Origin: an uncultured Actinomycetes bacterium
Lineage (GTDB): Bacteria; Actinomycetota; Actinomycetes; UBA12327
Reading direction: 5' to 3'
Length of the DNA: 58,622 nucleotides
Assembly: GCA_903920865.1 (NCBI GenBank)
Contig: CAIXNN010000060.1
Coordinates: forward strand, 1-58,622
Positions 45,205 through 45,380 of the stretch are shown here, piece after piece. The translations under genes and the position numbers were made by a program. Position 1 is the stretch's first letter. Every line of letters starts with the position of its first letter. The notes under the pieces are model-generated. The model made no database searches, was not told where the DNA came from, and saw only the letters and a program-made list of their open reading frames with translations.

Positions 45205-45251
45205 GAAGATCCCTCAGCCAGTTCGATTTTCACGCGAGTTACGTGAAATGC

Positions 45252-45329
45252 GTCGTTGGCCGGTTTCGCTATGGCTCACTTCGGGCTGGGTGCGACCAGA
45301 CAAACCCGAAGGTCAAAGCCTCCTACGAC
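45252..45329 (-). ncRNA. Cyclic di-GMP class II riboswitch aptamer
   Basis: Minus-strand RNA: GUCGUAGG-A-GGC-UUU-GA-C-CUUCGGGUU-UGU-CUGG-UCGC-ACCC-AGCCCGAAG-UGA-GCC-AUA-GCGA-AACCGG-CCAACGAC. It shows P1, a kink-turn (GGC-nnn-GA/UGA-GCC), a 9-bp P3, pseudoknot UCGC/GCGA and AACCG. It ends 47 nt before the ATG at 45204. Confidence 0.85.
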
Positions 45330-45380
45330 TTGACATATCTTGCCATGCCCCTCTGAGCCGTGTATCCCCCTTTCGGTCAT

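Follow-up and report, generated by a model that had tools for sequence, protein, structure and literature searches.

The stretch analysed here, called below the window, comprises 58,622 nucleotides (nt; positions 1 to 58,622, forward strand) of contig CAIXNN010000060.1 (assembly GCA_903920865.1) of an uncultured actinobacterium from the lineage UBA12327. Its minus strand carries a gene for a secreted surface protein of 1238 amino acids (aa) and, in the sense 5' leader of this gene, on the same strand, an RNA aptamer of the class II type for cyclic diguanylate (c-di-GMP), which ends 44 nt before the start codon ATG 45204. The protein has an anchor signal for sortase and DUF11 domains, and we consider it rather probable that its leader contains a functional class II c-di-GMP riboswitch with a canonical ligand pocket. 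The elements on which this assignment is based are listed below, P1, P3 and the pocket segment being read directly from the sequence.

45249..45332, minus strand: aptamer of the c-di-GMP-II type with helices P1 and P2, kink-turn, helix P3 and pseudoknot (RF03169, 40.4 bits; RF01786, 41.5 bits; covariation)
45329-45325 with 45256-45252, minus strand: P1, GUCGU/ACGAC
45323-45322 with 45259-45258, minus strand: top of P1, GG/CC, beyond an A-A mismatch
45311-45303 with 45287-45279, minus strand: P3, 9 base pairs (bp) including one U-G, CUUCGGGUU/AGCCCGAAG
45292..45297, minus strand: strand GGUCGC of the pseudoknot in the P3 loop, which pairs with GCGA (45269-45266) and CC (45263-45262)
45261..45272, minus strand: 3' pocket segment A-UA-GCGA-AA-CC-G (roles of the residues from PMC13715770)
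41488..45204, minus strand: regulated gene for the 1238-aa secreted surface protein (profile matches, motifs)

Scanning of the window against 4227 Rfam families revealed three matches above curated thresholds, namely two tRNAs and the aptamer, which was recognised at 45249-45332 of the minus strand over its full length by the model RF03169, named 'c-di-GMP-II-GAG' (40.4 bits with a cut-off of 40, E=1.9e-4). In a local search of 401 nt the best member of the clan was the canonical model RF01786 (41.5 bits, E=8.2e-8, positions 1-84 of 84). The match of RF03169 is unique within the whole 1.68-Mb genome (E=1.3e-6), and a covariance model of our own, R1, built from six sequences, scores the aptamer at 99 bits. 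Similarity to the c-di-GMP-II clan is far beyond chance, and the initial annotation was right in proposing an aptamer of this class on the minus strand. A 37-nt match of R1 on contig C31 (E=0.06) was dismissed as noise, leaving no second copy of the aptamer in the genome. A scan at Rfam gathering thresholds already annotates the aptamer of the window, under a sub-label that appears to be wrong.

Comparison with the consensus lines of RF01786 and RF03169 assigned all parts of the molecule. The strand GGAGGC-UUUGA has the features of a kink-turn: P2 is formed by GGC/GCC, three unpaired nucleotides UUU are bulged, GA stands opposite GA and the 9-bp P3 follows; further segments on the minus strand are the loop UGGUCGC, UGAGCC and GCGAAACCGGCC. 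P1, the kink-turn, P3, the loop and UGAGCC, as well as a downstream hairpin, UGGCUG, GAGGG and ATG 45204, were all found where the initial annotation had placed them, and its limits 45329-45252 are the exact paired ends of P1. The G+C content of the aptamer is 60%. A terminator-like match inside it (45323-45308) was rejected, being merely the sequence of P2/P3 followed by Us.

The contacts with the ligand are known from the structure 3Q3Z (PMC13715770), where one guanine is held by A69 through three hydrogen bonds and the other is recognised by G73, A70 is inserted between the two bases of the ligand, a further adenine serves as a ceiling of the pocket and the first pair of P2 contacts the backbone of the ligand. 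If A69-A70-x-x-G73 is matched with the conserved AACCG through the Rfam consensus, we infer that A45265, A45264 and G45261 are the equivalents of A69, A70 and G73, while A45272 corresponds to the ceiling adenine A61 and A45321, located before P2, to A13. The 3' tail reads ...GCGAAACCG... in the window, ...GUGCAACCG... in the canonical consensus of RF01786 and ...GCGAGACCG... in the variant consensus of RF03169. It deviates from the canonical consensus only in the residue preceding A69, which is A for C, and the loop partner of this residue is U for G, so that the pseudoknot pair becomes U-A and the change is compensatory, as had been proposed initially. This U-A pair also belongs to the GAG consensus, in which, however, G replaces A69. 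The name 'GAG' presumably marks this G in place of the recognition adenine. Since the position that defines the variant, 45265, is occupied by A in the window, the label 'GAG variant' seems misleading for this aptamer, all pocket residues of which look canonical. In other phyla this U-A pair is combined with A69 in aptamers that do reach the canonical cut-off (71.3, 63.7 and 54.2 bits), and one from a genome of the same class (G046) also passes RF01786, with 53.5 bits. Besides, two actinobacterial aptamers of the A69 type, L073 (59.1 bits) and L121 (52.4 bits), score best with RF03169; the choice between the Rfam models thus tracks background composition rather than the pocket. By its structure and pocket the aptamer of the window is, as far as can be judged from such alignments, canonical class II, which fails only the curated score of RF01786, like nearly all examples from the same class.

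In the family to which the genome belongs the aptamer was found in four of the seven other genomes, and the three genomes where it was not found are 76-86% complete. All four relatives have A at the variant position, and their P1 and P3 differ from those of the window in a compensatory manner (P3 of G006, for instance, is CCGUCGAUC/GAUCGGCG). Among 61 genomes of the same class RF03169 matched 29 at E<=0.01, 22 of them above its cut-off, and RF01786 matched 22, only 2 of them above its own. The best hits of 28 relatives comprised 16 of the G type (four rows from unpublished genomes), 8 of the A type, like the window, and 4 other or unclear. Since 8 of 28 carry the canonical A, the name of the family is an unreliable guide to the pocket. 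Rfam cut-offs appear to file high-G+C class II aptamers with a canonical pocket under the variant label, and anyone mining the GAG family for new ligands should first sort its sequences by the pocket residue.

A pattern scan for the A-type core, performed with one genome per species, gave at least 120 loci, and at least 87 among the 120 matches listed were verified by R1 at E<=0.01. The numbers that follow refer to the matches listed. According to a hand tally of record titles, at least 48 verified loci belong to Chloroflexota and at least 29 to Actinomycetota (including a Dactylosporangium isolate, an Actinomyces metagenome-assembled genome, Acidimicrobiia and Solirubrobacterales), at least 6 to Bacillota, at least 2 to Acidobacteriota and at least 2 to others. 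Of the 33 loci that R1 did not verify, most are situated in coding-like sequences of unrelated taxa and were counted as chance matches; a few, such as L040, L066, L069, L133 and L158, look real and were missed by the model. In several genomes a pair of aptamers is found at close range, from a few hundred up to a few thousand bases (L003/L030 in G025, L074, L104, L122, L129, L131 and L141), and some pairs are arranged in tandem on one leader, as at 4282-4381 and 4390-4490 of L074. Based on this distribution, the aptamer of the window is an unexceptional example of a riboswitch class that is known and widespread in Actinomycetota, and the surprise that the initial annotation expressed at finding class II in an actinobacterium was overstated.

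Covariation was estimated in an alignment of 77 rows (76 distinct sequences) fitted to the structure by the model. In the 76 sequences 86.6% of the paired cells were indeed paired compared with 65.4% in shuffles, none of which reached the real value in 500 attempts, and with 34-39% for slid partners. P2 and P3 were paired in 96.9% and 96.1% of cells, respectively, with double changes at every pair of both helices. The pseudoknot was paired in 99% of cells, most of the rows having been chosen by a pattern that fixes its letters other than the covarying pair, for which all combinations were allowed. This pair, the neighbour of the U-A pair of the window, takes the form G-C in 50 rows, A-U in 20, and is never unpaired, which adds to the compensatory exchange discussed above. 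The core is stable in other lake populations as well: contigs from four other lake runs had no variant inside 45250-45331 and 11 differences elsewhere in 341 nt.

Several observations weigh against a canonical c-di-GMP aptamer and should be considered together. The RF01786 score is below the curated cut-off of 53.5 bits, and the GAG-variant model alone is passed, by 0.4 bits; the search with the Rfam c-di-GMP-II models that had been suggested as a check reached the cut-off for the variant family and stayed below it for the canonical one. Folding energy of the aptamer is ordinary (z=-1.02, with 30 of 200 shuffles folding equally well in a calculation made without the pseudoknot). Finally, an engineered class II RNA with the same kinds of pocket residues binds 3',3'-cyclic GMP-AMP (3',3'-cGAMP; PMC13715770), which means that pocket residues alone do not prove specificity. 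From the scores one could assume that the aptamer belongs to the GAG variant class, whose altered pocket implies a different ligand, and both the predominance of true GAG-type sequences among the relatives' best hits and the U-A pair common to the window and the RF03169 consensus agree with that. However, the residue aligned with the variant position is A, as in the canonical consensus and all four family relatives, aptamers combining U-A with A pass the canonical cut-off elsewhere, and A-type L073 and L121 also score best with RF03169, so that we regard this membership as quite improbable. If the pocket is canonical, the sensed molecule may still be another cyclic dinucleotide, for example 3',3'-cGAMP or cyclic di-AMP (c-di-AMP). 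The engineered RNA with its recognition A, intercalating A and G binds 3',3'-cGAMP with 11.1 nM and 2',3'-cGAMP with 460 nM (PMC13715770), and the genome has one c-di-AMP synthase domain; on the other hand, this binder is a laboratory deletion mutant representing no natural class (PMC13715770), no cGAMP synthase of the SMODS type was found in the genome, which is rated 100% complete, and four intact GGDEF loci are present. The chance of such a ligand is, in our estimation, small. Least of all do we believe in a fortuitous resemblance or a decayed, non-functional relic. A score that barely passes one threshold and misses the other and the unremarkable folding energy are what a relic might have, but the genome-wide E-value, retention ahead of orthologues in G001, G004 and G006, where P1 and P3 have changed in a compensatory way, the intact set of pocket residues and the core free of variants in four other lake populations speak for a maintained structure. 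Most probably, and with good confidence, the ligand is c-di-GMP.

The gene following the aptamer codes for a protein with a signal peptide, a Ser/His-rich region, three DUF11 domains and DUF7507. Its C-terminus combines LPKTG with a hydrophobic membrane span and RRLARRTH, i.e. an anchor signal for sortase, and there are two sortase loci in the genome. In G001, G004 and G006 the gene behind the aptamer is an orthologue (46-50% identity over 400 N-terminal aa), and in G007 (L022) the surface protein encoded there is a different one, carrying a VWA-like metal-site motif. Four GGDEF loci with intact GGDEF motif and three EAL loci suggest that the host is able to make and break c-di-GMP. The genome also has five loci of the WhiB family, which among 14 controls was matched only in Corynebacterium and which assigns the organism to Actinomycetota, and the stretch under study occurs in lake-water metagenomes, one of which may be its source.

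The way in which ligand binding could be transmitted to the gene depends on the 3' end of the aptamer and the 44 nt between it and the start codon, where the following elements were distinguished.

45257..45262, minus strand: CGGCCA, a shared strand that contributes the pseudoknot C, the ligand-contacting G and the top two pairs of P1 or, alternatively, one side of another helix
45228..45248, minus strand: spacer hairpin UUUCACG/CGUGAAA, 45248-45242 with 45234-45228 (folding, RNAalifold)
45215..45220, minus strand: UGGCUG, switching strand complementary to CGGCCA, the last G of which is the first base of GAGGG
45211..45215, minus strand: Shine-Dalgarno-like GAGGG, 6 nt before the start codon (the same spacing in five of five relatives)

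The proposed pairing of the 3' end of the aptamer, CGGCCA, with UGGCUG beside the ribosome-binding site (RBS) was confirmed as feasible: this helix was predicted by RNAalifold in all four close relatives, with a single change from G-C to G-U that is specific for the window, and the 52-nt alternative hairpin formed at 45211-45262 has a folding energy of -18.5 kcal/mol (z=-3.53), which was equalled by 2 of 200 shuffles. Because it engages the ligand-contacting G, the pseudoknot C and the top of P1, the helix excludes the ligand-bound fold, as is evident from the sequence itself. In the spacer hairpin two of four pairs predicted by RNAalifold survive a two-sided change in at least one relative. 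Position 45216 (minus strand) is U in the window and C in all four other lake runs and in three close relatives; the U of the window is a minority form. The substitution U45216C converts G-U into G-C opposite the ligand-contacting G of the alternative helix and, therefore, keeps the pairing. Neither the sequence nor a terminator scan revealed a U-run after the alternative hairpin, and the classical terminator is thus absent. In the relatives, an exact downstream complement of the same aptamer strand within 110 nt was registered for 43 of 110 verified sequences, again among the matches listed, and for none of 112 upstream controls. For the most part these complements lie 4-20 nt from the aptamer with a U-run behind them, which would make them terminators prevented by ligand binding, and sharing of the aptamer strand appears to be a design typical of the class. 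The leader of G007, with a strong hairpin, UUUUU 7 nt later and a second hairpin, has a platform unlike that of the window.

Based on the mutually exclusive helices one can suppose that c-di-GMP would lock P1 and the pseudoknot, that the locked aptamer would release the strand UGGCUG beside the RBS, and that its release would raise expression of the adhesin, either at translation initiation or at transcript elongation, with more adhesin on the surface at high c-di-GMP as the biological outcome. An ON switch of this kind is somewhat favoured, the arguments being analogy with the terminators, the behaviour of G007, strand pairing in G001 and G004, and accessibility of the start codon. In the folding model the aptamer strand of G007 pairs with GGG of the RBS, those of G001 and G004 pair with the start codon, and locking of the aptamer makes the start codon more accessible in five of five cases (0.18->0.27, 0.02->0.74, 0.06->0.60, 0.10->0.51 and 0.07->0.72). 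The reservations concern the same platform. With the leader taken through AUG+3, the alternative helix is formed and AGGG...AUG is unpaired (-42.4 kcal/mol). The switching helix shows no double compensatory change, since its 5' strand cannot vary within the aptamer; it reaches only the first G of GAGGG; the modelled unpaired probability of the RBS is not raised by locking (0.21->0.22, 0.60->0.09, 0.57->0.13, 0.61->0.45 and 0.30->0.21); and for the leader taken through AUG+6 the fold of minimum energy contains P1 together with a hairpin burying GAGG and AUG, as expected for the opposite logic. The claim that the ligand frees the RBS and turns translation on went further than these results: the exclusive helix is conserved and the start codon becomes more accessible, while the alternative helix covers one base of GAGGG and the RBS did not become more accessible.

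The opposite logic implies that folding of the aptamer releases UGGCUGAGG for pairing with CUUCA-U-GUCA, which buries both the RBS and AUG, and that without ligand CGGCCA holds this strand and the RBS is open. Such an OFF switch can rely on the AUG+6 fold just mentioned (-43.3 kcal/mol), on the open AGGG...AUG in the AUG+3 fold and on RBS accessibility, which shows no rise in five relatives. Yet the burying hairpin is not conserved, as G001 and G004 differ in sequence and predict the opposite; with the population variant U45216C it would become weaker and the alternative helix stronger; and relatives with terminators, as well as G007, follow the ON logic. Moreover, the two states are separated by approximately 1 kcal/mol in a model that ignores both the pseudoknot and the ligand. 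Thermodynamic models thus disagree on the direction of control, and taking all the arguments together we consider repression by c-di-GMP unlikely and keep to the ON switch as the preferred assumption, with some weight left to mechanisms outside these models.

Upstream of the aptamer there is one more conserved block:

45337..45345, minus strand: possible extended -10 element TGGCAAGAT (conserved block of alignment A1)

If it really serves as an extended -10 element, transcription would start at approximately 45329-45331, i.e. at the 5' end of the aptamer. A scan with the sigma-70 consensus found no promoter-like site in 45100-45700. Two short palindromic boxes of the form TAGCC-C/G-GAAC-GGG were noticed at 45393-45407 and 45366-45378 (minus strand), on the 5' side of the aptamer at a distance of approximately 35-75 nt. 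Both are kept in G001, G004 and G006 (alignment A1) and may represent an operator for some protein or mark where the SurA-like gene that lies upstream has its terminator region. A gene related to c-di-GMP turnover is present on the same contig:

21259..22500, plus strand: GGDEF-EAL protein, 1048-aa frame with intact GGDEF motif, 23 kb from the riboswitch

Its product is likely a source or a sink of the ligand and stands outside the riboswitch itself. One further GGDEF domain, on a 2.1-kb contig (C17 of G000, 571-1025, minus strand), is split by TGA between adjoining matches and represents a broken gene or an assembly error.

Genes downstream of related, verified aptamers were surveyed crudely, by taking the longest frame that starts within 300 nt and trimming it to 400 aa. 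For the 120 hits listed, 13 of which were dropped as duplicates or for lack of a frame of at least 80 aa, this gave 107 frames, most of them without a Pfam match. The commonest families were response regulators (10) and their DNA-binding domain (9), followed by DUF11 (7), DUF7507 (4), DUF5979 (3) and VWA (2). Ten of the 107 frames (alignment A6) are response regulators of the OmpR type, and one contains a C-terminal domain similar to that of BldD; in this case the gene for a c-di-GMP-binding regulator may be preceded by a c-di-GMP riboswitch.

The broadest interpretation would be that a streamlined planktonic lake actinobacterium has no RNA receptor for c-di-GMP other than this aptamer, which gates the translation of a single giant adhesin anchored by sortase. 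Taken as a whole this picture is tentative, and we would rather doubt than accept it. If true, it would amount to an 'attach or drift' circuit of minimal size and to a class II c-di-GMP switch working without a terminator. The locus offers a concrete and testable output of c-di-GMP signalling in a freshwater actinobacterium with a small genome: one RNA sensor and one surface adhesin. Interest of the locus is modest and lies in the platform without terminator beside the RBS, in the arrangement of one sensor with one adhesin and in the database mislabel. Text searches of the literature found no account of class II c-di-GMP riboswitches in Actinobacteria or Chloroflexi, which the original papers on class II and its variants may cover; the biology of these switches appears under-studied there, though their sequences are common.

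Compared with known systems, the window shares with c-di-GMP-II (RF01786; 3Q3Z, PMC13715770) the layout of P1, P2, kink-turn and P3, the pseudoknot between the loop and the 3' tail, the pocket residues, the position in a 5' leader and the use of the 3' strand of the aptamer in a downstream alternative helix. It differs from RF01786 in its high G+C content, in one pseudoknot pair, U-A instead of G-C, in the first pair of P2, which is G-C, and in the alternative helix, which is located approximately 40 nt away and ends at the RBS without a U-tailed terminator. With c-di-GMP-II-GAG (RF03169) it has in common the clan, the fold, the U-A pseudoknot pair and a score reaching the cut-off, but has A rather than G at 45265. 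Class II switches of Clostridioides difficile stand before CD2831, CD3246, the pilin operon and cmrRST, with a collagen-binding protein and a thioester-domain protein among the products (PMC11477304), i.e. before surface or adhesion genes of the sortase type, as in the window, and signalling genes. Tandem class II switches precede surface-anchor proteins (PMC9481103), and the families found in our downstream survey resemble both these sets. Unlike the switches of C. difficile, that of the window belongs to a different phylum and has no U-tailed terminator downstream. The class II switches of C. difficile are described as acting on transcription. The window also resembles the terminator-coupled aptamers with a canonical pocket from Chloroflexota and Actinomycetota, which have the same U-A / A-A-C-C-G type and reuse the same strand (CCGRCC); in the family of the window the complement of this strand is shifted by one base, lies distally and adjoins the RBS, whereas in theirs it is mostly found 4-20 nt from the aptamer and is followed by a U-run.

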